A stretch of 64,000 nucleotides of DNA from a virus: IMG/VR virus record IMGVR_UViG_3300027792_000010. The stretch is one strand, 5' to 3'. The position numbers and the translations under genes are program-made. Below are positions 10,974-61,643 of this stretch, one piece after another (the stretch's first letter is position 1; every line of letters begins with the position of its first letter). The notes under the pieces were generated by a model. The model had not been told where the DNA came from. It ran no database searches and saw nothing but the letters and a program-made list of their open reading frames with translations.

Positions 10974-11010
10974 ACAAAAAACCCCGCTTCAGTTTCCTGG
11001 GCGGGGTTTC
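10974..11010 (-). terminator. attenuator 1 intrinsic terminator
   Basis: AAACCCCGC...GCGGGGTTT hairpin followed by TTTTTGTTTT. Confidence 0.9.
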
Positions 11011-11037
11011 GTATTTTTTCTGGTTTACCAGTTTACG

Positions 11038-11151
11038 TCAAGTTTTCCCACCCACCACTATATTATTACAGAGTAAATATGACAATAACCATGCGGCTGC
11101 TGTATGCAGCTTGGTCATTGTCGAACATAGTGTAGAATGGACTTTTTTCAT
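11038..11151 (-). CDS. attenuator leader peptide 1 (37 aa) MKKVHSTLCSTMTKLHTAAAWLLSYLLCNNIVVGGKT
   Basis: Lies between promoter 11180-11208 and terminator; contains antiterminator TGGGTGGG (11047-11054). Confidence 0.85.
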   Translation of the reverse strand: MKKVHSTLCSTMTKLHTAAAWLLSYLLCNNIVVGGKT

Positions 11152-11179
11152 TTTAAATACCTATTACCTTTCAATTTAT

Positions 11180-11208
11180 AATATACCATTTTGTAGAACC
11201 AAGATCAA
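11180..11208 (-). promoter_or_regulatory. sigma70 promoter of attenuator 1 (TTGATC-N17-TATATT, TGG before -10)
   Basis: Same architecture as the other three attenuator promoters. Confidence 0.85.
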
Positions 11209-11641
11209 GAAAATATTTCAGAATCTTTTTTGAGCCACATTTCCTTTAGGCTTTTTATGGCTTCCGTGCATATAGTGTTGTTTACTGAATTTTTCTCCAT
11301 AAGGGATATGAAATTCCAGGTTGTTTTTAATTCTTCCCTGGTTTTGCTACCAAGGACCATCCGTGCGGCTTTATCGTATAGGTCCTGTTCCATAATGGCT
11401 GTAATTACTCCTCAACTTTTAGATACTTCCTCAGCTTATTTGCTGCCAGGATGTATTGCTCTCTTAACTCATGAAATATTTTATCATTGATTTCTTCGAA
11501 TCTTGAGTAGTGTATAAAGGTATAGTCAAAACCTTCCTGGCCTACTCTCTGTGCTACTTTTTTTCTATCCTCTTCTTTCATAACAGCTCCTTTTAATTTT
11601 AAAATAGGGCTTTAATAATATACTTTTTTAAATGATAGAGA

Positions 11642-13063
11642 TCAAATTTTGTTTTTTATAGTTTCTACTAAATACTTTATCCTTTTCTCCTGAATGTCTC
11701 TAACTTTTGGGTCTGACTCCACTACCGTATTATGTATATAGCAAAACCAAAATAACTCTTCGTGGAACTTCTCCAAGTCTTTATACCACTTTTCTACTTT
11801 TGGATCAACATACTCATGATGTCTTTCCCATTTCAAATCAACATATGAAACCCAGTCATTTAACGATGAAGGCTTTGGCATCCCTCTTTTTACGCATTCA
11901 GTGTATACATCGGTATTGGGAGTAGGTATCAATTTTTTTATATTTACCTGGGCCATCCCATTCTCTAATAACAAATTAATCATTGTAATATACGTGCATT
12001 TTATGTCTTGTAAGGTTTCTTCTGGAAATCCCGCTATGAAATTGTAATTTACTATGATATCAAAATCTCTTAGTCTACGATTGATTGTAAGAACCATATC
12101 TGTTTTGTGCTTCTTACCAATTATTTTTAGCATCCTATCAGAACCAGTTTCAGCACTTATCCCTATAGTTTTTATTCCGCATTTTTGTAAAAGTTCTATA
12201 TGGATAGGTAACATATTATATAGTATCGTAACGGGAATAGATACATATACTTCAAACTTAAGATTAGATGCTATTATTGCTCTAATGTAATTCATAGCAT
12301 TTGTATTAACAAAAAAGTTATCATCAGCTATAACTAATGCTCTAAATCCTATATCCCATATATTCCTTAGATGCCTAATCATATTGTCTATACTCATGCA
12401 TCTGAATTTTGTTCTAAAGTTGTTCTGTACGCAATAGTAGCAGGAGAGGGGACATCCTCTCGTTATTTCTATGGTGGCTACTTTGTCTGAGCTAAATTTG
12501 TAAAAAGGATTTGTAGTAGGATTCTGAAATTTATCTAATGATAAGTCTTCGTAAGACAAAAGTGGTAATTCATCTAAATCAAAGTTCTCTGGATCTGCCT
12601 CTGTCTTTTGTACTTTTCCTTTTACTTTGTAGTAGATACCTGGAATTTTACTCAAATCTTCTTTATGCTGTATACTTAGTACTAACTTTGTTATCGTTCT
12701 TTCAAACTCACCAACACAAACTATATCTATATATTCATTCTCAATAGTTTGTTCTGGGGTGAGTGTCGGATGTATTCCTCCCCAGATTATAGTAATTCCT
12801 GGGTGCTTTTCTCTTATTTGTTTTGAAAGAGTGAGGGCCTCAGATATTTGAGGCCCTGTCATAACGCTAAACCCGCAACATACCGTATCATCTTTTATAT
12901 GGTCCTCAATATCATCTACAAGATCGATATTTGCGAAACCACTTGAAGTACAGTAAATCTCTGAAGATATGTTGCTCTTCTTAAGTATCGAGCTTAGGTG
13001 TAGTAATCCTAATGGAGGAGAACTTAGAGGATTATCTTTACAGGGGTAAATAAATAGTACCAT
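11642..13063 (-). CDS. cobalamin-binding radical SAM protein (class B methyltransferase-like)
   Basis: PLGLLHL and GGIHPTL B12-binding region; TRGCPLSCYYC; DDNF. Confidence 0.9.
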   Translation of the reverse strand: MVLFIYPCKDNPLSSPPLGLLHLSSILKKSNISSEIYCTSSGFANIDLVDDIEDHIKDDTVCCGFSVMTGPQISEALTLSKQIREKHPGITIIWGGIHPTLTPEQTIENEYIDIVCVGEFERTITKLVLSIQHKEDLSKIPGIYYKVKGKVQKTEADPENFDLDELPLLSYEDLSLDKFQNPTTNPFYKFSSDKVATIEITRGCPLSCYYCVQNNFRTKFRCMSIDNMIRHLRNIWDIGFRALVIADDNFFVNTNAMNYIRAIIASNLKFEVYVSIPVTILYNMLPIHIELLQKCGIKTIGISAETGSDRMLKIIGKKHKTDMVLTINRRLRDFDIIVNYNFIAGFPEETLQDIKCTYITMINLLLENGMAQVNIKKLIPTPNTDVYTECVKRGMPKPSSLNDWVSYVDLKWERHHEYVDPKVEKWYKDLEKFHEELFWFCYIHNTVVESDPKVRDIQEKRIKYLVETIKNKI

Positions 13064-13066
13064 TAA

Positions 13067-13510
13067 CTATCTCCACCAAGTTAATAAAATAGGCCCTATA
13101 TGGATGCCCTCACACCATTTGTACACTGTGCCTATATTTTTTCCATCTATAGGGCGTGTTACTATATGACAGCCGAATCCCCAATCAAACGGGGTGAAAT
13201 GGATTCCAACATCATTTATCTTATCATATACCTTATACCACCACTTTTTTTCTTTCTCTTTCCTCTTATTCTCAAACTCTGTATACTTTTTGTCTTCTAC
13301 ATATACATCGGGCTCTGCAGCTTTCATCTTGTCTAGTAACTTAATGATGTCCTCAAGATGGCTGTCAGAGAAGTCAAAACAAATCCCAGTACCCTCATCA
13401 TCCGCATTTCCCTCATCTACTTTAAAAGGCTCCCAGATTGTATATCCAATTCCATCAGGATACTTAACTTTCTCTCCACGCATTTTTCCAGATTTATGTA
13501 TATTTCTCAT
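13067..13510 (-). CDS. hypothetical protein
   Basis: ORF track; coupled to neighbours. Confidence 0.65.
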   Translation of the reverse strand: MRNIHKSGKMRGEKVKYPDGIGYTIWEPFKVDEGNADDEGTGICFDFSDSHLEDIIKLLDKMKAAEPDVYVEDKKYTEFENKRKEKEKKWWYKVYDKINDVGIHFTPFDWGFGCHIVTRPIDGKNIGTVYKWCEGIHIGPILLTWWR

Positions 13511-13734
13511 TTCATCCTAGCTTTATAATAAGGCCAAAAACTCTCATCAGAGGGATTCCACAATCCTTTGTAGTCGCTGATATTCCAGGATTCAAAATAC
13601 TTCCTGTAGGTTTTTCCGTTTGGAATATCGTGAGTATGACGAATAATACGGTTGGCATAGTTTTTAATAAAACGCTTGTAGGAACTCCCTTCATTGCAGG
13701 ATTCCCAGAGATGCTTTTTGTATGAACGAGACAT
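13507..13734 (-). CDS. hypothetical phage protein
   Basis: ORF track; AAGGAG RBS. Confidence 0.65.
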   Translation of the reverse strand: MSRSYKKHLWESCNEGSSYKRFIKNYANRIIRHTHDIPNGKTYRKYFESWNISDYKGLWNPSDESFWPYYKARMK

Positions 13735-13772
13735 ATGAAACTCCTTGTTAAGGTGCTACATATAGTCCTCCT

Positions 13773-14054
13773 TTAGTCAGTTAATGATGTATCTACTTCA
13801 ACACTATGAATAAACCAATTCATATATATATTTAATTCATAAATCATTCTTTCTGTTACCGACGGTACCTTCTCCCGTATTTTGTTAAAGCACTGTTCTT
13901 TATTAATCTTTAACTCCAAATAAGAAAAATGGACCTCGGTATTCGGGTCCTTACATTTAATACAAAATAATTGATTTCTTCTTCTTAGAGAATTATCGAC
14001 GCTTCTATCGTAGTAGGTAAACCAAAAACTTCTATCCCACCGACTGTAGGCCAT
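13773..14054 (-). CDS. hypothetical phage protein
   Basis: ORF track; AAGGA RBS. Confidence 0.65.
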   Translation of the reverse strand: MAYSRWDRSFWFTYYDRSVDNSLRRRNQLFCIKCKDPNTEVHFSYLELKINKEQCFNKIREKVPSVTERMIYELNIYMNWFIHSVEVDTSLTD

Positions 14055-14324
14055 GTCAATCCTTTTTGTATTTTATCTTGATAATATTCATTATGTAGTC
14101 ATATCCGTCTTCTGTATGAGGCAAATTACATTCCGAACAATATTTTATTCCATTATCCAAGGTCTTGTAATTTCCTCCACAATCTGAAAACGGATAACAT
14201 GGACAAAAACAAAATAAACAATTGATTTCTTTAAACTTATGACATGGGTAGTATCCGCATCCCAGATTAGTGAAAAACTAGTAACTACTCATAGTCCTGA
14301 TTCATAGTCCATATGAATAGATCA

Positions 14325-15191: not shown

Positions 15192-15254
15192 TAAGTACTC
15201 CTTAGTTTAATTCCCAGTAATATACTTTTTTGGAATAGGGATATCAAATTTTTG

Positions 15255-22389: not shown

Positions 22390-22516
22390 GCGTCATGCGC
22401 CCCTTTTTCTTTGGTGTGCCTTGCTCTTTAAAGTAGGTTTCATAGTTTGTAGTGTGACCGATAGTGTAAATCATAGCAATAATATACTAATTAGGAAGGA
22501 AGTTTTAAATATAAAA

Positions 22517-22605
22517 CGGAAGGTACAGGATTTGAACCTGTGAAGGTATTTAAACTCCCTGACGGTTTAGCAAACCGTTGCAATAGGCCGCTCTGCCAAC
22601 CTTCC
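22517..22605 (-). tRNA. tRNA-Ser(GCU)
   Basis: Class II, G73, loop TTGCTAA. Confidence 0.95.
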
Positions 22606-22645
22606 ATTATTTTTTCTTTATGTTTCTTTTGTCCATAATCGAAAA

Positions 22646-22722
22646 TGGTGGGAGTATCACGAATTGAACGTGAGACCTTTCGGTTATCAGCCGAACGCTC
22701 TAACCATCTGAGCTATACTCCC
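22646..22722 (-). tRNA. tRNA-Ile(GAU)
   Basis: Loop CTGATAA, CCA encoded. Confidence 0.95.
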
Positions 22723-22737
22723 TATAAGCTATTAGGT

Positions 22738-22813
22738 TGGTAGCGGAATGTTGGAGTTGAACCAACTTAACCAAGTTTATGAGACTCGGTGAGATGCCGA
22801 CCTCCCACCCGCG
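22738..22813 (-). tRNA. tRNA-Met(CAU), initiator-like
   Basis: C1 mismatch, CGCGGG start, loop CTCATAA; acceptor stem imperfect. Confidence 0.8.
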
Positions 22814-22825
22814 ATGTATTTAAAA

Positions 22826-22896
22826 TAGTGAGAATCAGAATCGAACTGATCTAAACAGGATATGAGCCTGTTGAGGGGCCACTCCTCAATCTCACT
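22826..22896 (-). tRNA. tRNA-Met/Ile2(CAU), identity uncertain
   Basis: AGTGAGA/TCTCACT acceptor, loop CTCATAT. Confidence 0.8.
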
Positions 22897-22905
22897 GTAT
22901 GTTTA

Positions 22906-22981
22906 TGGCGGGGACGACGGGTTACGATCCCGCTCTCTTTGGCTTGACAAGCCAATGCTTTCCCGATTAAGCTACGTCCCC
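22906..22981 (-). tRNA. tRNA-Asp(GUC)
   Basis: G73, loop TTGTCAA, CCA encoded. Confidence 0.93.
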
Positions 22982-22991
22982 TAATATTTAA

Positions 22992-23474
22992 TTAATCCTC
23001 ACCTTCATAATCTATGATAGGTACTATTCTTACGTTCCTATCCTTATTGCCCCTAAGTATACGCTCAGCCTCTTTGTAACTATCGAATACTGTACTATCT
23101 ACAGTTCCTATTAAGGGGTCCAAAAATACATACCCTACTTTAAGACCTTGTTTCTTTAGATTCTCCAAAGCTGTATCTAAGTATTCTATCTTCTGCTTCT
23201 GTAATACAAATCCTATATTCAAATCAAAGACACGAACTAATTCATCATACTCTTTGTCTGGTAGGAATCCCTTCAAAAGGCATAAAGAACCTACGCAGCT
23301 TTCTAAGTATTTTCCGATTTTCAGAGAATGAAGTACATAGTAATAGCCATCCTCGTCTTCATCGAATCCTACTAATCTCACAACTTCGTGGAAGTCTATA
23401 AGTAGTTCTCCTTTATGTTTCTCTATAAACTCTAAAATCTCTGGCTTAGGATCTTTAAACTCTGATATGTCCAC
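22992..23474 (-). CDS. hypothetical protein
   Basis: 160-aa ORF between tRNAs, AGGAG RBS. Confidence 0.7.
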   Translation of the reverse strand: MDISEFKDPKPEILEFIEKHKGELLIDFHEVVRLVGFDEDEDGYYYVLHSLKIGKYLESCVGSLCLLKGFLPDKEYDELVRVFDLNIGFVLQKQKIEYLDTALENLKKQGLKVGYVFLDPLIGTVDSTVFDSYKEAERILRGNKDRNVRIVPIIDYEGED

Positions 23475-23495
23475 TATATACTCCTAAGAAAAATA

Positions 23496-23571
23496 TGGTG
23501 CCGCCTTTCGGAGTTGAACCGAATTCTTTAGCTCTTCAGGCTAACGCAATCACCGGACTTGCTCAAGCGGC
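23496..23571 (-). tRNA. tRNA-Phe(GAA)
   Basis: Loop CTGAAGA, CCA encoded. Confidence 0.95.
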
Positions 23572-23621: not shown

Positions 23622-23657
23622 AAAAAAGCCCCCGAACTTCTCAGTCCGGGGGCTTTT
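23622..23657 (-). terminator. attenuator 2 intrinsic terminator
   Basis: AAAAGCCCCCGGAC...GTTCGGGGGCTTTTTT. Confidence 0.92.
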
Positions 23658-23680
23658 ATAAGCTACTTGTTTACCCGGAC

Positions 23681-23758
23681 CTATACAATACTATCAAACA
23701 TACTATCAAAACTGATAGTATCGCTGTTGATGATAATGCTGAAAGTAGAGGTACACAT
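23681..23758 (-). CDS. attenuator leader peptide 2 (25 aa) MCTSTFSIIINSDTISFDSMFDSIV
   Basis: AAGGA RBS; antiterminator GTCCGGG (23674-23680) directly after the TAG. Confidence 0.88.
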   Translation of the reverse strand: MCTSTFSIIINSDTISFDSMFDSIV

Positions 23759-31930: not shown

Positions 31931-33292
31931 CCGTTCTGAAAAACTTATAAAATCTTTGCAAGACTCATGTTTTCTTCCTGCTTCATAGAAACAGCTTCTT
32001 GACCTATACAAGCATCTTGAAGTCTTATACTTTCTCCACAGGCTTTAATTCCCGACGAACTATCGGTATTTTTAAGTTTAATTAATACATACTTTTCAAG
32101 ATTAATAGATGCATTTAAGTCTCTATCTATGACATTTCCACAATCACATATATAAATCCTATCTTCTAAAGTAAGGTCTTCTTTCAAACAACCACAAACA
32201 GAACACGTCTTACTTGAAGGAAAGAACCTATCTACTTTAATTATGGAACCTCCATACCAAGAGGTCTTATAGGTTAGTTGCCTTTTAATTTCATTAAAAG
32301 AAGCATCTCCTATAGCACCTGCAAGTTTATGATTTTTCATCATACCAGAGACGTTTAAATCTTCTAAAACGATGTATCTTGGTTTGGTTTTCGCCAAAAT
32401 ACTTGTCATCTTATGAAGAGTATCTTTTCTTTGACTACTAATTCTTTTATATATCTTTTGTACTTTTAATTTACTCTTTAATCTATTATTACTTGATCTT
32501 TTAGTTTCTTTATCAAACTTTTTACGAGCTAAATCCTTTTGAGCATGAGCTAACTTTTTCTTTGATTTTTTAAGATACTTAGGATTTTCAAATATTTGAC
32601 AATTAGAACATGTAGCTAATGTTTTAATGCCTACATCAACACCTAAAACAGATTCTATTTGGTTTACTGGTTCTGGTATATCTTGTTCTACTTGAACAGA
32701 TATATACCATCTATCAGCTTCTTTGGAGACTGTCATAGAGTTTATTTTAACATCTTTAGTTGTTATATAACCTTTTTCTTTAAGTTTTACATAACCGACT
32801 TTAGGAATATTGATTGTTGAATTAGTTATATAGAACCCAAAGGAAATCCTAAAAGAATCTTTGTCTTTATGTTTTGACTTGAACTTAGGGAAACCTACTT
32901 TTTTACCTTGTTTCAAACCTCTAAAAAAGTTTTTGAAAGCTGTATCTAAATCCCTTAATGCTTCTTGAGGAGCCATTTTGGATATATCATACATCCAATG
33001 ATAATCAGTTTTCTTCTTACTACATAAAATTTTATGTTGATCTATAGCAGTTAAGGTTTTCTTTTCTGACTTATAAAGTTCTATACGTTCATTTAATCCC
33101 CAATTATAAGCAAAACGAGCACATCCAACACTCTTTTCTAAAAGAGTACGTTGTTTATTATTAGGATTAAGTTCTACTTTATATGCTCTATTTATCTTCA
33201 TTTTCTTTATTCTTCTTAGTCATATGACTTCTTCTACCATAAATTTTAGCTGAATAACAAGACATAATAGTTAAGATATCTGTTAGATTCCC
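31931..33292 (-). mobile_element. IS607-family element carrying only tnpB (no tnpA)
   Basis: Left end GGGAATCTAACAG, right end TAAGTTTTTCAGAACGG, GG at both junctions. Confidence 0.75.
31945..33201 (-). CDS. tnpB: RNA-guided endonuclease TnpB
   Basis: RAYKVELNP HTH; RuvC D (GVDVG), E (VLEDL), D (DRDLNA) intact; zinc finger CSVC...CDC. Confidence 0.95.
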   Translation of the reverse strand: MKINRAYKVELNPNNKQRTLLEKSVGCARFAYNWGLNERIELYKSEKKTLTAIDQHKILCSKKKTDYHWMYDISKMAPQEALRDLDTAFKNFFRGLKQGKKVGFPKFKSKHKDKDSFRISFGFYITNSTINIPKVGYVKLKEKGYITTKDVKINSMTVSKEADRWYISVQVEQDIPEPVNQIESVLGVDVGIKTLATCSNCQIFENPKYLKKSKKKLAHAQKDLARKKFDKETKRSSNNRLKSKLKVQKIYKRISSQRKDTLHKMTSILAKTKPRYIVLEDLNVSGMMKNHKLAGAIGDASFNEIKRQLTYKTSWYGGSIIKVDRFFPSSKTCSVCGCLKEDLTLEDRIYICDCGNVIDRDLNASINLEKYVLIKLKNTDSSSGIKACGESIRLQDACIGQEAVSMKQEENMSLAKIL

Positions 33293-34376: not shown

Positions 34377-34452
34377 TGGCTGGGACACAGGGACTTGAAC
34401 CCCGAACACCCAGAGTCAGAGTCTGGTGCTCTACCAATTGAGCTATGTCCCA
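34377..34452 (-). tRNA. tRNA-Gln(CUG)
   Basis: U1-A72, G73, loop CTCTGAC, CCA encoded. Confidence 0.95.
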
Positions 34453-34537
34453 CTATATGTCTGTTTATTACTCTTAGCTAATCCTTAAAACTATATAATA
34501 ATAAACTTCTTATTGAGAGTTCTATATTAATAAGTTA

Positions 34538-34608
34538 TGCCCCTAATTGGTCTCGAACCAATGACTCCTGTTTTAGAGACAGTTGTTTTACCACTAAACT
34601 ATAAGGGC
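34538..34608 (-). tRNA. amber-suppressor tRNA (anticodon CUA)
   Basis: GCCCTTA/TAGGGGC acceptor, A73, arm (A)CTGT-CTCTAAA-ACAG(G). Confidence 0.85.
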
Positions 34609-34614
34609 ACATAA

Positions 34615-34884
34615 TCACTCTATCACATAGATACCAGTTACGTTGGTTATCCAGTTCTTAGGGTCCTGAATAACTTCAATAGTCCACTGGTCTTCCTTCT
34701 GAATATGATCTCTCTGCCACTCGTAAAACATCTTCTGAGCCATTTTCAGGTCATACGAAGTTTTTACAAGATATGTATGCTCTGAACTTTCTGGTGATAC
34801 GAATTGATATAGCTTGCTAACCATACCATCTCCTTTTGTTATACTAAATGTAGATCTTTGAATATAACTCCTAAATCGAAACAT
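34615..34884 (-). CDS. hypothetical protein
   Basis: ORF track; true start may be MVSKL. Confidence 0.55.
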   Translation of the reverse strand: MFRFRSYIQRSTFSITKGDGMVSKLYQFVSPESSEHTYLVKTSYDLKMAQKMFYEWQRDHIQKEDQWTIEVIQDPKNWITNVTGIYVIE

Positions 34885-35150
34885 GCTATCGCTGTCTCTT
34901 GACCATCTAAGTCTGGTTCACGGAATACAGAAAAATACTTGCCTACTGTGGTAAGCTTTTCGTTCCAGGCTCTGAGAGCCAGTAGATTACTGACTCCCAG
35001 AAATACAATCGTCTGATTGCCCCAAATACTGAAAAGACCAGAGTGTTCTAAGGCAAACTGAGAAACCGCATGACACCCTTGGACACAGCGATAAGTTTCT
35101 GCCAGGTCCTTACGGACAAGGACATACATTCGCGGTGTTCGCGTACTCAT
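34839..35150 (-). CDS. PTH2-like (peptidyl-tRNA hydrolase fold) protein
   Basis: MYVLVRKDL...QGCHA...FREPDL...TAIA pattern; start moved to MSTRTP. Confidence 0.65.
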   Translation of the reverse strand: MSTRTPRMYVLVRKDLAETYRCVQGCHAVSQFALEHSGLFSIWGNQTIVFLGVSNLLALRAWNEKLTTVGKYFSVFREPDLDGQETAIACFDLGVIFKDLHLV

Positions 35151-35409
35151 TTTGGATCTCCTGAACAAGTTTGAAATTAGGATAGTTACCTTCCCTTGTA
35201 TATCTTTCAATTTTATCATAACTTCTACCTCTCATTAGACAGTAAGCTATATGCTTATGTCTGGTTATCCAACTTGTACGCCCAATTTCATTATCCAGGT
35301 CTTCTATTTTCCAGGTACCTCTATTACCCTGAGGTCTGTGAGACTTAAGTTCTCTAATCGTTACAGATAACGCTTTCAATTCATTCTTTAATTCACTTAA
35401 TGGTTTCAT
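35110..35409 (-). CDS. hypothetical phage protein
   Basis: AGGAG RBS; RHKHIAYCLMRGR. Confidence 0.7.
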   Translation of the reverse strand: MKPLSELKNELKALSVTIRELKSHRPQGNRGTWKIEDLDNEIGRTSWITRHKHIAYCLMRGRSYDKIERYTREGNYPNFKLVQEIQNEYANTANVCPCP

Positions 35410-35670
35410 TTCAATCTCCTTAAATTTAGTTGTTATTGTCTTCTTATAGAATAATAGAAAGGCAATAACTTTTAAGGGGGCTTGAAAACCTATGGGAAAT
35501 TAAGAACCTACAGCATACCTACTCCTTAGTCTGTTTTTGAAGGAACTAAAATATATTTACACAATTTCCTCTATACATTTTTAAGTATCCAATTATTTTA
35601 ACACCACGATCTAACTAAAGCTATATTTGCACTAATAATAATTATTTCTAAGTCAGAAAATTAAGTTCCT

Positions 35671-36087
35671 TTACTTAGTTATCCATATTACAGTAAAATC
35701 GGTATCTAATTTAAAGGGCTCTTGACTTACAATGTTTAACTTTGTAGCTCTGACAAGCTTGCTTGTAAAATTGAATAAAAATGCGTATAAATTACCAGCA
35801 TCGGATTTAGCTAAAACTTCCATAAATCCTGAATCGGGAACCATTTTTAAAGTACTTTGCACTAAATAATATTTACTCGCTATTTCAGGCGTTTGATGTA
35901 AAAAGTACCAAGAATCAGACGTATCATTGGTTATATAAAAAGTGTATGTCGAACTCTCCATTACAGTACCCACATACTTCGAATCCTTATCAATAACTAC
36001 CCGGTGGGTAGTAGTAATAGGAGAAATATTTCCTCCAGCAAATAAGAAAGAAAAACCTAACGCAATCAACATCAGAAACTTACTCAT
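35671..36087 (-). CDS. secreted hypothetical protein
   Basis: Signal-peptide-like N-terminus. Confidence 0.65.
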   Translation of the reverse strand: MSKFLMLIALGFSFLFAGGNISPITTTHRVVIDKDSKYVGTVMESSTYTFYITNDTSDSWYFLHQTPEIASKYYLVQSTLKMVPDSGFMEVLAKSDAGNLYAFLFNFTSKLVRATKLNIVSQEPFKLDTDFTVIWITK

Positions 36088-36162
36088 ACCATTCTCCTTG
36101 ATTAGATTAATATTATACCTATACCCAACAAATCATAAAAAATTACTACTCAATAGCTACCT

Positions 36163-36396
36163 CTAAATATCTATAATATTCTTTTTCCATACATAACCCA
36201 CCCTCGGATTCCAAGGATCATCACTGAATATCCTTCTATCTTTATATAAGGGATCGATACATAGTGTGAAAATCCAGGCGCTGATATATAGTTTATGATT
36301 TCCAAAGATCATTCTTAATCTCAGTTTGAAAAACAAGTCCAGAGAGATATAAAAATATGATTCTCTACTTTTGTTAAAAGTTATTCCAAATACCAT
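36163..36396 (-). CDS. small protein with FSDDPW motif
   Basis: RIFSDDPWN; start moved downstream of tRNA-Pro. Confidence 0.6.
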   Translation of the reverse strand: MVFGITFNKSRESYFYISLDLFFKLRLRMIFGNHKLYISAWIFTLCIDPLYKDRRIFSDDPWNPRVGYVWKKNIIDI

Positions 36397-36422
36397 AGTC
36401 AATTTATCCCCAACAAAAAAAT

Positions 36423-36499
36423 TGGTCGGCAATACTGGATTTGAACCAGTGATCCCTTGCTCCCAAAGCAAGTGCGTTACCAGACTACGCTAATTGCCG
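36423..36499 (-). tRNA. tRNA-Pro(UGG)
   Basis: C1-G72, A73, loop TTTGGGA, CCA encoded. Confidence 0.95.
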
Positions 36500-36509
36500 A
36501 TAGATAAAC

Positions 36510-36643
36510 AGTAAACCGAACCCAGCCCACATTCAACACCATCTTTTCATTTAAAGGTTACAATTTCCTGCCACCCCGCGAGTAACCACAGGTGGTTGAG
36601 CGATTGCTGGCTGGGTCTTGTTTCTTCGTCAGGTCCGGTTTAC
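36510..36643 (-). ncRNA. unidentified structured RNA (long irregular hairpin)
   Basis: GTAAACCG/CGGTTTAC, GACCCAGCC/GGCTGGGTT, TCAAC-CACC/GGTG-TTGA; G.U pairs favour the minus strand. Confidence 0.5.
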
Positions 36644-36651
36644 TTTTTATT

Positions 36652-37638
36652 TTATAAGTTATTATCCAAATAGCTCATCCAAAATATTCTAGCTTTATTG
36701 GATATAAACGATCCCATCTTTTTAGGATCTATACCATTTTTAATAATGGTATCCTGTTCTTCCTTCATTACATCACTATATACCCACCTTATGTATTCTC
36801 CGGTGGTAGATTTATCCAGAGGATTCCCAAGTTCTTTCATTTTGTCGATGCCTTGCTGCATCCTATTTTCAGTTACAGCATATTCAACAAACTCTTTTAC
36901 ATTTTCTACCTCTTCGGTGTCGATAGAGGCAAGTTTCTTAACTTTACTATTCTGATGCTTCTCACCTTTCACCTTAAAGATATATCTTTTGGTATCATCT
37001 ATATATTCCCAAACTATTCCTTCCCCCAAACCACCTATCCCAAAGTATTTACCCACAGGGCATTCTTCTTCTACTTTTATAGTAAGCTCTACTAGTTTAT
37101 TCTGAGCTATTTCTGGCTTATTGAAGTCTATATCCAGTTCATAGTTCTCAAACTGAAGAATATTGAATATCTTTTTATCCTCATTCTTAAGATGCTTGAA
37201 TTGCTCTATAGGCTTATAGACATCATCTATTCTAATTGCAAAAATTACCCACATGACAGGTAGTTTACTTATAGCTACACATTTTTGTATGCCAGAACCA
37301 CACCACTCTCCATAGATAGCACAACTGTCATTAAATTCTATACCTTCAAAAATCTTGTCTATGTCTCTATTCGTCATGGTAAGCATAAAACGGTAATTAT
37401 CAGATTCTATGCTCAACAACCTATCTTTACTTTGATATTCATAATGTCCATCTTTATATTTAACAATGGCTGAGTTTGTGCCGTGAAGTTTTATGGTCCC
37501 ACGGAACTTTAGAATAGGATAATCAGTCTCATGCCTATAGACAGGAGCACCTGTTTTATCCTCACCTTTATAATCATGGTGAGATTTAACTGCTCTGATA
37601 ACTTCTCTGAATTGTCCTATATCGGTAAATTTTTTCAT
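36652..37638 (-). CDS. ATP-dependent RNA ligase (Rnl2-like)
   Basis: TIKLHGTN (motif I), YGEW, GEGIVW, FKVKGEKH. Confidence 0.85.
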   Translation of the reverse strand: MKKFTDIGQFREVIRAVKSHHDYKGEDKTGAPVYRHETDYPILKFRGTIKLHGTNSAIVKYKDGHYEYQSKDRLLSIESDNYRFMLTMTNRDIDKIFEGIEFNDSCAIYGEWCGSGIQKCVAISKLPVMWVIFAIRIDDVYKPIEQFKHLKNEDKKIFNILQFENYELDIDFNKPEIAQNKLVELTIKVEEECPVGKYFGIGGLGEGIVWEYIDDTKRYIFKVKGEKHQNSKVKKLASIDTEEVENVKEFVEYAVTENRMQQGIDKMKELGNPLDKSTTGEYIRWVYSDVMKEEQDTIIKNGIDPKKMGSFISNKARIFWMSYLDNNL

Positions 37639-37775
37639 ATCATATACTCACATTCTGTTTCGTCTTTGAATCTGGTTTTTTAACATTATCTTTTACGAGC
37701 CCGTAGTTAGCATTATTAAACTCACCCATCATTTCAGATAAGATTTCATCAGATACCACAAAAAATCTTTACCTG

Positions 37776-38036
37776 TCATAGGTATCCTCCAAAATGTATA
37801 GGTTTTTGTACATTCATTACACTAACTCCAGATGGATATACTAGCAGGTTTCGGAATATTTTATCTTCTTCTTCTTCCTGTATTTGTTGTACGTGCATGG
37901 ATATTATTTGATCGCTAGCTTCCATCATTTTTTGCCCATATAAAAACCAATCACGCCACGGGTCATCAGCTTCCCACAGGTATTCAGCTTCCCACAGGTA
38001 TGTTGATGTGGTCTGAGTTAAAGTTAAATTTTCCAT
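37776..38036 (-). CDS. WxADDPW protein, paralog of 34154..34330
   Basis: MENLTLTQTTSTYLWEAEYLWEADDPWRD. Confidence 0.7.
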   Translation of the reverse strand: MENLTLTQTTSTYLWEAEYLWEADDPWRDWFLYGQKMMEASDQIISMHVQQIQEEEEDKIFRNLLVYPSGVSVMNVQKPIHFGGYL

Positions 38037-38084
38037 CGTAATGATAATATACTTTTTGGAAGTATGAGTTTAAAGTAAAAAGAG

Positions 38085-38156
38085 CTGGAGTGCAGGGATT
38101 TGAACCCCGATACTTAGATCCAAAATCTAAGATCCTAACCGTTGGATGACACCCCA
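38085..38156 (-). tRNA. tRNA-Gln(UUG)
   Basis: U1-A72, G73, loop TTTTGGA. Confidence 0.95.
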
Positions 38157-38207
38157 GTAAAGTTGATGGCGACTGCGCTCATGATTGGTATCGCCACCGC
38201 TGAAGAT

Positions 38208-38285
38208 TGGTCTAGATGGAGGGATTCGAACCCACGACCCTCGCGCCCCAAACGCGATGCTCTAGCCGGACTGAGCTACATCTAG
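38208..38285 (-). tRNA. tRNA-Pro(UGG), second copy
   Basis: C1-G72, A73, loop TTTGGGG, CCA encoded. Confidence 0.93.
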
Positions 38286-38296
38286 AGTTATTAAGG

Positions 38297-38380
38297 CTGA
38301 CACGGAGGGACTTGAACCCCCAAGCTCCTTACGGAGCGAACGGTTAACAGCCGTTTTCCTTGCCATTAGGATACGTGTCA
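38297..38380 (-). tRNA. tRNA-Asn(GUU) with long variable arm
   Basis: U1-A72, G73, loop CTGTTAA, 17-nt variable region GCTCC-GTAA-GGAGC. Confidence 0.9.
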
Positions 38381-38430: not shown

Positions 38431-38475
38431 AAAAAAGCCTCAGCGATCCTTGGTTCGGTTCGCTGAGGCTCTTTT
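38431..38475 (-). terminator. attenuator 3 intrinsic terminator
   Basis: AGAGCCTCAGCGA...TCGCTGAGGCTTTTTT. Confidence 0.92.
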
Positions 38476-38494: not shown

Positions 38495-38581
38495 CTAATG
38501 CAAAACAACCACCTTCAGCGAAACCTTATTAGGTTGCTGTGGATTAGGGTTCGGGTTATTTTGATTAGTAACAATAAACAT
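38495..38581 (-). CDS. attenuator leader peptide 3 (28 aa) MFIVTNQNNPNPNPQQPNKVSLKVVVLH
   Basis: AAGGA RBS; antiterminator TTCGCTGAAGG (38512-38522). Confidence 0.88.
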   Translation of the reverse strand: MFIVTNQNNPNPNPQQPNKVSLKVVVLH

Positions 38582-54813: not shown

Positions 54814-54823
54814 ACTATCTCCT

Positions 54824-55438: not shown

Positions 55439-55444
55439 GTACTC

Positions 55445-55597: not shown

Positions 55598-55608
55598 ACA
55601 TAATCCGG

Positions 55609-56238: not shown

Positions 56239-56239
56239 A

Positions 56240-56473: not shown

Positions 56474-56477
56474 CTTG

Positions 56478-56729: not shown

Positions 56730-57258
56730 AATCTGGATATTTTTTCTTCATCTCAATATCTTCCCAGTTCACAGGAGTACCTTTTTCGTATATAGGTAAA
56801 ACGCTCAAATCTATATAGCACCCCTCACCTAACTGAATAGCCCAAGCCCATCTCCCATGAGGTTTTGGACCTGGATAATCTTTTTCTATCGTACCATTAC
56901 AAGCACCTATAAAAGATTTAACAAATGTTAAAGTATCTGAAGCCTTTTCTGTCCAGGGTACTGCTATCAGGTCAAAATCTCTCTTCATACTACCGTGGAT
57001 CGCCAGGGCATACCCGTGTTCTTTCGATACCTGAGATAGCCATGGATACATCTGAGCATAAAACCAGGGTAGTACCTTTGTATTGTTGACTATTTTAGGC
57101 TGTCCTCTAAGTTGATCTGCCCAAGCTATAGCATCAGACGCATCTTCATGACATTTTTTACAATCCTGTTTTACTGCTTCATATCCTCTATCTCGGCATC
57201 TTTTAAAACCACCACAGACATTGCCTTCGGACGGAGAAACATCTTTTTCACCTACCAT
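56722..57258 (-). CDS. hypothetical phage protein
   Basis: GYALAIHGSMKRDFDLIAVPW; nucleotidyltransferase-like DxD. Confidence 0.7.
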   Translation of the reverse strand: MVGEKDVSPSEGNVCGGFKRCRDRGYEAVKQDCKKCHEDASDAIAWADQLRGQPKIVNNTKVLPWFYAQMYPWLSQVSKEHGYALAIHGSMKRDFDLIAVPWTEKASDTLTFVKSFIGACNGTIEKDYPGPKPHGRWAWAIQLGEGCYIDLSVLPIYEKGTPVNWEDIEMKKKYPDYV

Positions 57259-57267
57259 CTTTACTCC

Positions 57268-58608
57268 TCAGTTGATACTGTAGTTTGCCCTAATATACAA
57301 CAATGCTTGTTCTTTTGTTGTAACAGTACCTTCCAATTGTTCAGTGTCTACTGCTTCAAGAATCTCTTTGAATTTAGGTCCGGGTTTGAAACCCATAGCA
57401 ATAAGGTCATTACCATCTACCAATCTATCTGGAAGGATGACCTTACCTCCTGGTTCCTCTGCAAAAGAATCCATAGCTTCTTTAACAAACTGCAAATTAT
57501 CTAATCCTCCATGAGAAGACAAACAATCAGCCTTGTGAAGTTGCAAGTGCTCTTCAAATCTATCCATAGCTATAAATCTCTTAAGCGTGGACTTCCTCAT
57601 GTCCCGTATTACACAGAACTTCATATGGTTCTCAATTAGGGAACAAACCCTATCTATAAAATAATTTGAAAACTTCAACCTGGTTAATAGCTCTCTGGCT
57701 ATATGAGAGCCTTTAATATCATGTCCATTGAACACTAACCGACCTTTCCTATCATCCCAAGCTTTAGTAGTGGGCTTTCCCACATCATGCAACAAAGTAG
57801 CCCACAAAAGCTCTGGGGAGGCTTCTTTTGGGAGGTAATTCAAGGTGAGACAGGTGTGTTTACCGACGCACCCTTCTGGATGAAAGTCCACAGGCTGCTC
57901 ACACCCAAACATATCTTGAATTTCTGGCAGGATATGCTTTAGTATACCAAAATGTTCCAAATCCTTAAGAGCTTCTCCTCTGACTTTACTTTGTTCCAAT
58001 ATTTTTGTCAACTCATCTGCTATTCTCTCTACAGATATTTTCTTGATAAGGATACTATTATCCATTATAGCTTTCTCTGTATCGGAGTCCATAGAGAACC
58101 CCAAACGGTGTTTGAACCTTATGGCCCTCATTAATCTTAAGTGGTCTTCCAATATTCTCTCTTCAGGATCACCTATGAACCTAATTAATTTATCTTCTAT
58201 ATCTTTTCTACCGCCTACGTAATCATAGTACTCCTCAAGGGTAGGGTCATAAAAGATACCATTGATAGTGAGGTCTCTCCTGTTAGCATCCTCTTCCATA
58301 GTAGAAAACTCAACACTTGAAGGATGTCTACCATCCAAGTAAATACCTGCGTCTCTTCTAAAAGTAGCGACCTCAAATTGAATCCCATCAAGTATAACAA
58401 TTATTACGCCAAAAGCTTTCCCTACTTCTATATTATTAGGGAACAGTTCCTGAACTTGGTGAGGAAAAGCAGAGGTAGCTATATCATAATCATGCGGCAT
58501 AACACCCATAATTTGGTCACGATTGCAACCGCCAGCAAATACCGCTTGATATCCTGCGCTCTGTAGAATTTTAATAATACCTACAGCAAGTTCTTTTTGC
58601 TTATCCAT
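57268..58608 (-). CDS. cca: CCA tRNA nucleotidyltransferase with HD domain
   Basis: AGGCNRD, HDYDIAT, RRDLTING, DHLRLMRAIRF, LLHDVGK. Confidence 0.93.
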   Translation of the reverse strand: MDKQKELAVGIIKILQSAGYQAVFAGGCNRDQIMGVMPHDYDIATSAFPHQVQELFPNNIEVGKAFGVIIVILDGIQFEVATFRRDAGIYLDGRHPSSVEFSTMEEDANRRDLTINGIFYDPTLEEYYDYVGGRKDIEDKLIRFIGDPEERILEDHLRLMRAIRFKHRLGFSMDSDTEKAIMDNSILIKKISVERIADELTKILEQSKVRGEALKDLEHFGILKHILPEIQDMFGCEQPVDFHPEGCVGKHTCLTLNYLPKEASPELLWATLLHDVGKPTTKAWDDRKGRLVFNGHDIKGSHIARELLTRLKFSNYFIDRVCSLIENHMKFCVIRDMRKSTLKRFIAMDRFEEHLQLHKADCLSSHGGLDNLQFVKEAMDSFAEEPGGKVILPDRLVDGNDLIAMGFKPGPKFKEILEAVDTEQLEGTVTTKEQALLYIRANYSIN

Positions 58609-59165
58609 TAGTTAAGTCCTATTGTACTTTTCAAATATTGTTTAGAGGGTATCCACTCTTTAATATCCATAGAGAATACCTCATCTACATTCCGTATGAT
58701 CTGATATGAATGCGTCGTTAATACTATCTGACAGTTTCGCTCTATAACCTCCTCAAATATTTTAAGCACTTTGACCTGATTAGTCAAAGACAACCCAGCT
58801 TCCGGTTCATCTATAATAAGAATAAGGTCTTTAAACTCTATTGCGGCCTTTAATAATGGCAATATAGCTTCACCATGAGACATAAAATGAGAAGTCACGG
58901 TAAAACGTGCGTTTTTAGAGGACGCCACACTCTGAAACCGAGGATTCATTTTCTCGGTATCCAGGAATCTGGTTTGGACTTTATCTGCCTCTATTCTCTT
59001 TAGCTTCTTATCTGGTTCAGAATTCAACAAGTGTAAAAGGGATGATTTACCTGAGCCATTCTCTCCTACAATTACATTCATCCCAGGATGGAATTTTACC
59101 TCGAATGGAGAAATACCCCGGTAAGGAACCTCTAGGGTAAATGACTTTAAAAAATGGGCGTACAT
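58608..59165 (-). CDS. ABC/AAA-type ATPase (cytoplasmic, single domain)
   Basis: GENGSGKS, MSHGE, IDEPE, TTHS. Confidence 0.85.
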   Translation of the reverse strand: MYAHFLKSFTLEVPYRGISPFEVKFHPGMNVIVGENGSGKSSLLHLLNSEPDKKLKRIEADKVQTRFLDTEKMNPRFQSVASSKNARFTVTSHFMSHGEAILPLLKAAIEFKDLILIIDEPEAGLSLTNQVKVLKIFEEVIERNCQIVLTTHSYQIIRNVDEVFSMDIKEWIPSKQYLKSTIGLN

Positions 59166-59306
59166 AAAAAATCCTCCCTTATTAGGAAGTAATATACTAT
59201 TTGGGAATTAAAATTGAAAGTAGGATAAAGATACAGGTCTCTGTAGTTTATATAATCTGCTATGTTTGCTGCAGCTCCGCCTACATAAAGGTATTACAGA
59301 AATAAA

Positions 59307-59380
59307 TACGCTAGGCAAGATTCGAACTTGCGTTGTAGCTTTCGTAGAGCTATGCCTTTAATCCAATAGGCTACTAGCGC
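59307..59380 (-). tRNA. tRNA-Arg(ACG)
   Basis: Loop CTACGAA. Confidence 0.92.
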
Positions 59381-59386
59381 ATATTT

Positions 59387-59875
59387 TCAATACCCTAATA
59401 ATAGTAAAGCTTTATCTATGTCTAAATCAGAAAGCCCTATTAAGCTATCTGTTAGTACTAAATGATCTTTTAAATCTCCCAAATCATGATCCTCATCATC
59501 TATTATTATGTACTTACCCTTAAACTTGTTAGACCTTAACCAACTTTTTATTTCATCACTTCTATTATGGCTTATACGATTAGTATTTTTTAGTCTTACA
59601 CCGCAAGGGATCATTCCTATTATTTTATCTATGGGTACTGTTATAGCATCTACTGCAAAAGGATTGACACCATGTATAGCTCCATTTATCCTAAATATAT
59701 CTTTTAGCTTTTCCAATCCTGTTACATCTGACATCCAGCTACTTGTTATTACTAAGTTAGCATCTGTTATATCAATAAGTCTATTTAGTCTTTTTATAGT
59801 ATCTAAATCAAAATATAAATAGTCAGTATTTGCGGTACACAGCACCCCATCAATGTCTAAAAAGATAATATTCAT
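59387..59875 (-). CDS. HAD-family phosphatase (RNA-repair 'Swiss army knife' type)
   Basis: IFLDIDGVL, VITSSW, IIIDDE; start moved off tRNA-Val. Confidence 0.85.
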   Translation of the reverse strand: MNIIFLDIDGVLCTANTDYLYFDLDTIKRLNRLIDITDANLVITSSWMSDVTGLEKLKDIFRINGAIHGVNPFAVDAITVPIDKIIGMIPCGVRLKNTNRISHNRSDEIKSWLRSNKFKGKYIIIDDEDHDLGDLKDHLVLTDSLIGLSDLDIDKALLLLGY

Positions 59876-59895
59876 GTTATCACTTTCTATTTTAA

Positions 59896-59968
59896 TAGGC
59901 TTATTCGGATTCGAACTGAAGACCTCCTGCACGTCGAGCAGGCGCTCTTCCAATTGAGCTATAAGCCC
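59896..59968 (-). tRNA. tRNA-Val(GAC)
   Basis: Loop TCGACGT; one T-stem mismatch. Confidence 0.88.
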
Positions 59969-60244
59969 AACTAATCTATTTTTTCATGTCTAGATTGTTT
60001 TACTATTTTATAATGACTCCTCGAAGGGTCATAGCTACTTCTAGCCTCTCCGGGCTTACCGACCTCAGCAGCGTAAGACCGTTCAAGTCTATCATACCCA
60101 CGTTTAACAATCTCATCAATTTTCTGGCTACTCATAAATACCTCTACTAAGATTAAAGGTTACTGTTTACTCTTCATATTGTCCTATAAGGTCTTTTGGA
60201 AGGTTTAGTTATCTATAACATCAAAATTCAGTATACTTAAAGAA

Positions 60245-60820
60245 CTAAAGCCCACTATTATTACCCCATAAATAATAACTAAGCATATCGGCGCTATTTA
60301 AAATAACAGATAGTGTAGTCATACTAGTACCTTTGCTATACACTGAGGATAAATCAAAACTATACCCTCCATGATGGTGATCTATAGCCTCAATATGTTT
60401 ATCTGTAAGCTGTATCCCATTCCTAAAGCACTCTGCTACTGCCTTACTATTCTCCGCGTAGGGAGGAATATCTTTTCTATACTCGAATAGTTGATTACTC
60501 TTAGGCTCTTTAAGAAGTTCGTATCGCCATAGTTTATCCAGGTCATGCACAAAGGACACTAAAACTACATCGTCTATGTTAAAATCCTTTATTTCTTCAT
60601 AAGAGGAAGCTGTCTTGTATAAAGAGATGCCTAATTCCATTACTTGTGCTGTATGGTCACCCCACCCAGCTCTCCACCAGTGGTGATACTTTCTGGCTGA
60701 AGGATAGAAATCTATCTTATCCTTCAGGGTATAGTACGCACCTATCAAACTATCAAGGAGCGTACTACTCGTAATGTTATCTTCAAAGATCTTAGGTATG
60801 TCTGTTCCGCGTGGAATCAT
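60245..60820 (-). CDS. HD-domain phosphohydrolase
   Basis: HT...FVHDLDK...HHGG...AD. Confidence 0.82.
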   Translation of the reverse strand: MIPRGTDIPKIFEDNITSSTLLDSLIGAYYTLKDKIDFYPSARKYHHWWRAGWGDHTAQVMELGISLYKTASSYEEIKDFNIDDVVLVSFVHDLDKLWRYELLKEPKSNQLFEYRKDIPPYAENSKAVAECFRNGIQLTDKHIEAIDHHHGGYSFDLSSVYSKGTSMTTLSVILNSADMLSYYLWGNNSGL

Positions 60821-60847
60821 TGTTATCCCTACCTTTCAAAAATGTAA

Positions 60848-60920
60848 TAGACGTTGAGGGATTCGAACCCCCGACATCCGCGATGTAAACACGGCACTCT
60901 ACCAACTGAGTTAAACGTCC
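60848..60920 (-). tRNA. tRNA-Val(UAC)
   Basis: Loop TTTACAT. Confidence 0.93.
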
Positions 60921-61120
60921 ATCAGTTTCTTATTTATTTCTGCGATTTCTTCCTCTTTTTTTCTTTTCTCCCTAACACACTCTCTTCTGGTATGAGTAAG
61001 CCATTCCGGGGCATCTGTAAAAGAATCATCCCAGGTATACCCCTCAATAGAATGATTCAGACTTAGTATTTCATCATATAGCTCACTCTTACGCTCTAAT
61101 AGCTGCTTTCTTTTTTTCAT
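60911..61120 (-). CDS. hypothetical coiled-coil protein
   Basis: AAGGA RBS; 3' end overlaps the tRNA-Val 5' end by 10 nt. Confidence 0.55.
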   Translation of the reverse strand: MKKRKQLLERKSELYDEILSLNHSIEGYTWDDSFTDAPEWLTHTRRECVREKRKKEEEIAEINKKLMDV

Positions 61121-61144
61121 TACAATTTTTCCTTAATTATATTG

Positions 61145-61216
61145 TGGGACCGGAGAGATTCGAACTCTCGGTACCCGTATTAAAAGTACGGGGCCTTACC
61201 ACTTGGCTACGATCCC
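61145..61216 (-). tRNA. tRNA-Lys(UUU)
   Basis: Loop CTTTTAA. Confidence 0.95.
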
Positions 61217-61331
61217 AGAATTTAATCCTGAGTTCGTATAATGGTAACTACAAACTCAGGCTATCGTTTATACCTTTTTAGACGTTTCATAAACAAAACT
61301 ACTTTCATATATAGTTAAATTTTTAAATTAA

Positions 61332-61404
61332 TACCCCTGGAAGGACTCGAACCTTCAACTCCTTGCTTAAGAGGCAAGTACTCTAACCATTGAGTTACAG
61401 AGGC
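61332..61404 (-). tRNA. tRNA-Lys(CUU)
   Basis: Loop CTCTTAA. Confidence 0.93.
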
Positions 61405-61455
61405 GATTTTAGACGTTTCTTATTTTTACTACTTTTCCACACGACCCCATAAAAC

Positions 61456-61490
61456 AAAAAAGCCCCAGAGAAAAATCTCCTGGGGCCTTT
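61456..61490 (-). terminator. attenuator 4 intrinsic terminator
   Basis: GGCCCCAGGAGA...TCTCTGGGGCTTTTTTG. Confidence 0.92.
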
Positions 61491-61514
61491 ATCTAAAGCT
61501 ATTTAGCTTCATGT

Positions 61515-61595
61515 TCAGATAAAAGAACCCCAGGGGCTACCTTTATGGCGCTTTGCTACGACTTTTACCTTTACCACAAACAAACTCATAAACAT
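61515..61595 (-). CDS. attenuator leader peptide 4 (26 aa) MFMSLFVVKVKVVAKRHKGSPWGSFI
   Basis: AAGGAG RBS; antiterminator CCTGGGGT (61527-61534). Confidence 0.9.
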   Translation of the reverse strand: MFMSLFVVKVKVVAKRHKGSPWGSFI

Positions 61596-61614
61596 AATAT
61601 ACTCCTTGTATCAT

Positions 61615-61643
61615 AATATACCACTTTGCCGGGTAAAGATCAA
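61615..61643 (-). promoter_or_regulatory. sigma70 promoter of attenuator 4
   Basis: TTGATC-N17-TATATT with AAGTGG before -10. Confidence 0.85.

Follow-up and report, generated by a model that had tools for sequence, protein, structure and literature searches.

In enterobacteria, translated leader peptides attenuate the transcription of amino-acid operons, and beside hisL, trpL, leuL and pheL, multivalent leaders are known that respond to more than one amino acid: thrL (Thr, Ile), the ilvGMEDA leader (Ile, Leu, Val) and the ilvBN leader. tRNA genes are generally thought to be controlled at their promoters (growth rate, stringent response), not by attenuation; how phages control their own tRNA genes is, to our knowledge, largely unknown, and we know of no attenuator for the tRNA clusters of T4, T5, vibriophages or huge phages. 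Full-text literature searches gave no description of leader-peptide attenuation of tRNA genes, be it in phages or in other organisms. The stretch of DNA analysed here (IMG/VR record IMGVR_UViG_3300027792_000010; 64,000 nt, in the following termed the window) stems from a large, uncultured phage that is also represented by a contig of 202,460 bp; the window is part of a metagenome contig of 190,913 bp, the flanks of which were reached via identical proteins (coordinates with the prefix L001 lie past the window end, those with the prefix L018 past the window start). All genes of the window including its 29 tRNA genes are located on the minus strand; the tRNAs are contained in four blocks, and just upstream of each block a unit of constant design is present (promoter, short ORF, antiterminator strand and terminator). 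Based on sequence and fold models, these leaders are probably ribosome-mediated transcription attenuators that report the decoding speed at the codons of the downstream tRNAs.

The four units had been proposed in a first-pass annotation of the sequence and were confirmed at their positions, all on the minus strand and with the same succession of promoter, ORF and terminator. The promoter is of an extended sigma-70-like type matching the consensus and consists of TTGATC, a 17-nt spacer with a TG extension (14 nt, TGN) and TATATT. Exactly four perfect matches to this pattern exist in the 64 kb, all of them at the leader units (leader 1: 11208-11180; leader 2: 23827-23799; leader 3: 38639-38611; leader 4: 61643-61615); with up to two mismatches, 6 matches were obtained versus 1.7 expected, a number that no shuffle reached. 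The ORF of leader 1 (11038-11151) comprises 37 codons and TGA, with a run of His, Ser (UCN), Thr, Leu, Cys, Ala, Trp and Tyr codons at positions 5-28; leader 2 (23681-23758) has 25 codons and TAG, with Phe, Ser (AGY), Ile (AUY), Asp and Met at codons 6-24; leader 3 (38495-38581) has 28 codons and TAG, with 13 consecutive Asn, Gln and Pro codons at 6-18; leader 4 (61515-61595), preceded by a good Shine-Dalgarno sequence, has 26 codons and TGA, with Val, Lys and Arg at codons 7-18.

Because of bulges and loop size, three of the four attenuator terminators escaped a simple scanner; in the energy-based scan used instead, every run of at least five T was inspected for an adjoining hairpin at least as stable as −14 kcal/mol. 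Only the four leader terminators passed this cut-off on the minus strand; they are given here with their U tracts: 10974-11009 (−18.9 kcal/mol), 23622-23657 (15 pairs, −25.7 kcal/mol), 38431-38475 (−29.3 kcal/mol) and 61456-61490 (−22.4 kcal/mol). As there are only four perfect promoters and only four strong terminators and both are found at the same units, promoter, ORF and terminator occur only together. Each leader had been described as the first element ahead of its tRNA block; this holds for leaders 2-4, which end 43-52 nt before a tRNA, whereas approximately 410 nt, including an ORF of 57-61 codons, lie between leader 1 and the first tRNA of its block.

The four units of the window are not the full set, since the genome contains at least five. 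The fifth, located approximately 4 kb past the window end (L001:4410-4660), shares the promoter and is composed of a 22-codon ORF ending in TGA, an antiterminator that contains the stop codon, and a terminator; its run consists of 11 consecutive AUA, GGN, GAR and AGR codons (Ile/Gly/Glu/Arg). Behind it follow Glu-UUC, a CAU tRNA, Gly-GCC, Gly-UCC and an intron-bearing Arg-UCU. In a relative with 74% protein identity (see below), Ile-UAU occupies the position of the CAU tRNA, and this positional counterpart supports the assignment of the latter as an AUA decoder. A fifth leader had been predicted for the tRNAs absent from the window: the Gly, Glu and Arg (AGR) codons were indeed found ahead of these tRNAs, with AUA-Ile in addition, but no extra Thr tRNA was found behind leader 5. 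With block 5 included, tRNAs for all 20 amino acids are positioned behind some leader.

For the comparison of leaders and blocks, the codon set of each block was defined as the codons read by its anticodons under standard wobble rules and was then counted in every leader. At the amino-acid level, the proposed tallies were reproduced, with 22/24, 17/19, 13/13 and 10/12 cognate codons in the runs of leaders 1-4, respectively; by strict wobble the count of leader 1 decreases to 21/24, as ACC is not read by Thr-UGU. The best-window binomial p values of the leaders versus their own blocks were 1e-8, 2e-10, 4e-13, 6e-7 and 8e-7 (leaders 1-5). In the complete leader-by-block matrix, the leaders were enriched only for their own block (all off-diagonal p values 4e-4 or weaker), and none of the 347-613 background windows of equal length from the phage's own long ORFs (347-533 for leaders 1-4) was as good as the respective leader.

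The correspondence extends to the isoacceptors. The serine split of the first-pass annotation proved to be exact: leader 1 contains only UCN codons (TCT, TCG, TCA) and its block Ser-UGA, whereas the run of leader 2 has five AGY codons and its block Ser-GCU. Arginine is divided in the same manner between leader 4 (CGC; Arg-ACG) and leader 5 (AGA/AGG; Arg-UCU), and isoleucine between leader 2 (AUU/AUC; Ile-GAU) and leader 5 (AUA; the CAU tRNA). The Leu codons of leader 1 (CTA, CTG, CTC, TTA and TTG) are the Watson-Crick codons of Leu-UAG, Leu-CAG, Leu-GAG, Leu-UAA and Leu-CAA; Leu-CAG, the partner of CTG, sits just past the window start, beyond which block 1 extends. Both isoacceptors of Ala, Lys, Val and Gln each have their own codon in the matching leader, and for every tRNA gene found in the five blocks a cognate codon is present in its own leader, a single leader sampling up to eight amino acids and 13 tRNA species. 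Judged from the sequences, the codon match is one at the level of the tRNA species, not of the amino acid.

The HD-like ORF inside block 4 served as marker for relatives, and contigs at 74, 46, 45 and 40% protein identity yielded a comparative set of six leaders from four other phages. The 74% relative retains leaders 4 and 5. In its leader 4, the non-cognate Phe, Ala and His of the window are replaced by Val, Val and Arg, so that 13 of 13 codons specify Val, Lys or Arg; two of the three replacements need two nucleotide substitutions each. The nucleotide changes that distinguish the leader 4 stems of the window from those of this relative show no clear compensatory pattern, two sequences being too few for such a test. 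The 45%, 46% and 40% relatives possess Val/Lys/Arg leaders of other codon order and other sequence, each with a promoter of its own, a stop-proximal antiterminator and a terminator. The CGG codon occurs in all three of these leaders and Arg-CCG in both of their readable blocks; the window and the 74% relative have neither CGG in the leader nor Arg-CCG. The 40% relative additionally carries an Asn/Pro/Gln leader with 10 consecutive such codons and a TAG stop ahead of tRNA-Asn (L026:13924-14004). Altogether, leaders of the classes Val/Lys/Arg, Asn/Pro/Gln and Gly/Glu/Arg/Ile are kept at 40-74% protein identity with differing sequences; the preservation of amino-acid classes and architecture rather than of sequence is as selection on codon identity predicts. 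In this small sample, leader codons followed the downstream tRNA content, a relation for which a comparative test had been proposed.

Searches by other routes were negative: megablast and tblastn against GenBank phages revealed no close relative, the IMG/VR viral contigs contained no match to the promoter pattern or to two protein queries, and the genome contig collection none to the promoter pattern. Relatives identified through the RNA ligase (63-74% identity) were not syntenic and had no leader near the ligase gene. In one of them (74% identity; contig L007), no attenuators were found near the tRNAs; this contig exhibits a near-consensus promoter and, between it and a 469-codon ORF, three copies of a 13-nt motif set apart by spacers (L007:5427-5660, plus strand).

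The same attenuator hardware could also serve another signal, namely host amino-acid starvation or general translation stress (as for hisL and ilvL), with the tRNAs as part of a stress-induced early operon. Amino-acid limitation would likewise result in readthrough, since ribosome stalling reports charged tRNA, and the operons indeed hold other translation genes (S21-like, peptide deformylase, YqeY-like, CCA-adding enzyme). However, a sensor of amino acids needs neither the split of Ser, Arg and Ile codons between different leaders nor the sampling of five Leu anticodons, nor the joint gain of CGG and Arg-CCG, and a starvation for amino acids is not relieved by extra tRNA. In consequence of the isoacceptor splits and of the fact that additional tRNA cures no starvation, the sensed quantity would be tRNA supply rather than amino-acid supply, and the starvation signal is regarded as unlikely.

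The layout of ribosome-stalling attenuation that had been postulated was recovered at all four units in every sequence-level feature that was inspected (a promoter followed by a leader of 150-200 nt, a short ORF with start codon and ribosome-binding site, a regulatory codon run, an intrinsic terminator and a mutually exclusive antiterminator), and the codon match exceeds chance by far at the isoacceptor level. The presumed target genes differ from the familiar ones in being tRNAs, not amino-acid biosynthesis or synthetase genes. Leaders 1-3 are far more stable than their shuffles (z −5.3 to −6.7). To model the switch, each leader was cut just before the 3' arm of the terminator and a 29-nt ribosome footprint was masked at varied codons; such truncated folds are a thermodynamic proxy for a kinetic process, and they were needed to reveal the switch, as the terminator persisted in all full-length minimum-energy folds in which a ribosome was masked. 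According to these models, the position of the ribosome selects the structure in all five leaders: with the ribosome absent or stalled in the run, 8-16 nt of the terminator 5' arm pair with a segment at or just upstream of the stop codon, whereas a footprint on the stop codon abolishes this antiterminator pairing and sets the terminator 5' arm free. The trp, his, thr and ilv attenuators follow this logic.

The predicted antiterminator 5' strand of leader 1 (region 2; 11047-11054) lies 7-14 nt upstream of the stop codon and engages 8 nt of the terminator 5' arm unless the ribosome is at the stop. In leader 2 (23674-23681), the strand overlaps the TAG stop by a single base, the last of the codon, and otherwise lies immediately behind it. 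The strand of leader 3 (38509-38525) is situated within the ORF tail; ribosome stalls at codons 6-15 leave it paired to 13-16 nt of the terminator 5' arm, a pairing that is lost with the ribosome at codon 18 or at the stop. In leader 4 (61514-61534), it spans the last ORF codons and the stop, and here the antiterminator is contained within the full-length minimum-energy fold. In all five leaders, the stop codon is found at, or up to approximately 28 nt downstream of, the antiterminator strand and 24-34 nt upstream of the terminator 5' arm; at this distance, a terminating ribosome cannot itself melt the terminator. In three leaders of relatives (L008 and L017 among the folds), the modelled structure likewise switched when the ribosome was moved from a stall within the run to the stop codon. 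An anti-antiterminator or pause helix (1:2), which would give termination without translation, formed in two relatives (L008, L017) when no ribosome was included and was weak in the full-length folds of leaders 1-3.

On this basis, the following sequence of events is proposed. A host-type promoter would start a leader RNA of 150-200 nt, the short ORF of which would be translated by a ribosome as RNA polymerase moves ahead. Given an ample supply of the cognate charged tRNAs, the ribosome would reach the stop codon and cover the antiterminator 5' strand; the GC-rich terminator would form and the tRNAs would not be transcribed. If any cognate tRNA is scarce, the ribosome would stall in the run, the antiterminator strand would pair with the terminator 5' arm, and transcription would continue past the terminator site into the tRNA block and on into the genes that follow. 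Since the tRNA products would relieve the stall, each unit would constitute a negative-feedback loop on one tRNA subset, and the at least five loops would jointly span the tRNAs for all 20 amino acids. Leader translation, the relative timing of ribosome and polymerase, the in vivo direction of regulation and the physiological trigger are parts of this scheme that we infer.

An inverse logic, in which active translation of the leader promotes readthrough and the tRNA operons are on when translation is good, was considered in two variants: the ribosome might push the polymerase, or a ribosome driven by the suppressor tRNA might melt the terminator at the TAG-ended leaders. Leaders 2 and 3 do end in TAG, as does the Asn/Pro/Gln leader of the 40% relative, and block 3 contains a suppressor tRNA-CUA; TAG readthrough would take the ribosome across the terminator. 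Yet the stop codon of leaders 1, 4 and 5 is TGA, the window ORFs gave no indication that TAG is recoded, and the position of the stop codon relative to the antiterminator and the terminator arm in all five leaders is such that a terminating ribosome favors the terminator; the inverse logic is thus judged very unlikely, even less probable than the starvation signal. That the ORFs merely encode small functional peptides, or that the units are ordinary promoter/terminator punctuation whose codon match lacks regulatory meaning, is scarcely credible: although the ORFs are unannotated and the terminators could end upstream transcripts, the joint probability of five right leader-block pairings is negligible, the relatives share the amino-acid classes while differing in peptide sequence and order, and the antiterminator overlaps the terminator in every unit.

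Several points weigh against attenuation by tRNA supply. While the Shine-Dalgarno spacing is good in leaders 3-5, it is poor in leaders 1 and 2, and two non-cognate codons are present within the run of each leader save 3 and 5. In leaders 1-3 and 5, the terminator is part of the full-length minimum-energy fold; a kinetic switch would lead one to expect this, but the case for switching is thereby a kinetic, co-transcriptional one. When truncated, the window leaders fold into the antiterminator even without a ribosome; in consequence, untranslated transcripts would read through, unlike in the superattenuation of trpL. The comparative sample is small (the six leaders of four other phages). Finally, each unit may gate 10-20 kb of protein genes, as there is no other strong terminator on the minus strand, and the tRNAs are maybe not the only or main target.

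Among the genes possibly gated in this way are several of translation and RNA repair: the Rnl2-type RNA ligase in block 3, the CCA-adding enzyme after block 4, the S21-like, YqeY-like and peptide deformylase genes of block 1, as well as Cpn10 and a polynucleotide kinase-phosphatase, which are located downstream of block 1, past the window start. Such a set of genes is in keeping with a reaction to a translation apparatus that is damaged or in short supply; possible triggers are anticodon nucleases, shut-off of the host and codon demand. A more far-reaching interpretation, which we put forward tentatively and with somewhat less than even confidence, is that of an isoacceptor-resolved tRNA homeostat: at least five codon barcodes covering all 20 amino acids would each switch on one tRNA operon, together with RNA-repair and translation genes, upon depletion of the respective subset, and the TAG-ended Asn/Pro/Gln leader may tie in the supply of the suppressor tRNA-CUA. 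In such a homeostat, depletion could be caused by host anticodon nucleases, by phage-induced loss of host tRNA or by codon demand.

The tRNA inventory of the window comprises 27 genes detected by ARAGORN and two added by Rfam, Tyr-GUA (9647-9755) and Ser-UGA (2932-3040). Block 1 (7-10563) starts with Cys, Leu-UAG, Leu-GAG, Leu-CAA, Tyr-GUA (with intron), Leu-UAA, Trp and His; protein genes (topoisomerase, YqeY-like and others) are followed by Ser-UGA (with intron), the S21-like gene, Thr-UGU, peptide deformylase, Ala-UGC and Ala-GGC. The topoisomerase is of type IA (6435-8456), and the S21-like, peptide deformylase and YqeY-like genes are found at 1218-1457, 544-1083 and 4251-4706, respectively (all minus strand); HPr-like and Cpn10 genes lie beyond (L018:9104-9370 and L018:10462-10755). 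Block 2 (22516-23571) consists of Phe-GAA, a 160-codon ORF, Asp-GUC, two CAU tRNAs, Ile-GAU and Ser-GCU. Block 3 (34377-38380) contains Asn-GUU, Pro-UGG, Gln-UUG, an 86-codon ORF, the Rnl2-type RNA ligase, a further Pro-UGG, small ORFs, the suppressor tRNA-CUA and Gln-CUG. In block 4 (59306-61404), Lys-CUU, Lys-UUU and Val-UAC are followed by the HD-like ORF of 191 codons, Val-GAC, a HAD-like ORF and Arg-ACG; an ATPase-like ORF and the CCA-adding enzyme come after this block (57268-59165, minus strand). Genes of the IS605/TnpB family are scattered between the tRNA operons (31945-33201, minus strand; L001:6715-7830; L018:10842-12086), their sites being different in the relatives.

Some of the tRNA genes are unusual. 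The suppressor tRNA with the anticodon CUA (34537-34609, minus strand), designated “Pyl” by ARAGORN, has Gln and Pro tRNAs of block 3 as its neighbours. There is no evidence that TAG is recoded in the window, as 10 of 65 long ORFs terminate with TAG and treating it as a sense codon adds hardly any coding coverage. The two CAU tRNAs of block 2 (22742-22812 and 22826-22896, minus strand), each of 71 nt, have unusual D arms and score below the gathering threshold of the Rfam tRNA model; two more CAU tRNAs are present past the window end (L001:4788-4864 and L001:9203-9281). Three further tRNAs are over-long for class I, i.e. tRNA-Trp (9187-9272, 86 nt), tRNA-Asn (38295-38380, 86 nt) and tRNA-Thr (1123-1203, 81 nt), all on the minus strand. 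At approximately 10375-10470 (minus strand), a T arm and acceptor 3' strand are joined by a 7-nt linker to the matching acceptor 5' strand, which is followed by a D arm and an anticodon-like stem; this element, detected by neither ARAGORN nor Rfam, looks like a permuted tRNA gene, with the 3' half before the 5' half, or a rearranged pseudogene.

Tyr-GUA and Ser-UGA possess insertions of approximately 27 nt in the anticodon loop, which Rfam detects and the default mode of ARAGORN misses. Insertions of this size are also present in Arg-UCU (L001:5577-5679) and in Val-UAC of a relative (L008:4288-4389), and a tRNA hit of 104 nt (L015:1695-1798) is a candidate for the same class. The insertions fold as a long helix that pairs with the anticodon, and two of them are alike at both ends; group I introns were ruled out, the insertions being far too short. 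As the default and the intron mode of ARAGORN gave conflicting anticodons, those of the intron-bearing tRNAs were assigned from structure and homology, on the basis of the class II variable arm, the discriminator base and alignments with homologues that lack the intron. The insertions, the Rnl2-type ligase and the polynucleotide kinase-phosphatase gene (L018:14843-15727) jointly suggest protein-dependent tRNA splicing in a phage. A separate RNA feature was noticed in the 45% relative, where a structured-looking intergenic region (L011:2135-2400, plus strand) contains the conserved core motif of RNase P RNA (GAGGAAAGTCCGG); it gave no Rfam hit at gathering score and the motif does not occur in the window, but the region could represent a reduced phage RNase P RNA.

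If the homeostat interpretation is true, these would be the first known tRNA genes under attenuation control and a natural multi-channel sensor of decoding speed. The design is found in relatives down to 40% protein identity. Units that work as their sequence implies would provide a direct feedback of decoding speed on tRNA supply and would explain the grouping of giant-phage tRNA genes into particular sets; they would also be compact natural sensors of single tRNA isoacceptors, useful for studies of anticodon-nuclease defence, of the codon-usage conflict between phage and host and of genetic-code switching.

The phage tRNA operons resemble the tRNA clusters of T4, T5, vibriophages and huge phages in that tRNA arrays are interspersed with small ORFs and accompanied by RNA-repair genes (Rnl2-type ligase, polynucleotide kinase-phosphatase). 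With T-box riboswitches, the units have in common a tRNA-status-dependent antitermination of codon-like specificity; T-boxes, however, bind uncharged tRNA via a specifier loop and the T-box motif and contain no ORF, whereas the proposed codon reader of the phage units is the ribosome, and an Rfam gathering scan of the whole window gave tRNA hits only and no T-box. Closer is pheST of E. coli, in which leader-peptide attenuation (pheM) adjusts a component of the translation machinery to the supply of charged tRNA; it differs in sensing one amino acid and in controlling a synthetase, not the tRNA itself. The attenuators of the enterobacterial amino-acid operons share with the phage leaders the promoter, the short ORF with its regulatory run, the terminator, the ribosome-selected antiterminator and the use of several amino acids per leader. 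In contrast to these, the phage leaders precede tRNA and translation/RNA-repair genes instead of biosynthetic enzymes, sample up to eight amino acids and 13 tRNA species by isoacceptor-specific codons, share out the whole tRNA set among at least five units, and have a 1:2 anti-antiterminator that is weak or absent in several cases. The class of mechanism is classical; new are the tRNA target, the many-codon, isoacceptor-resolved barcodes and the partition of the whole tRNA set among parallel attenuators.

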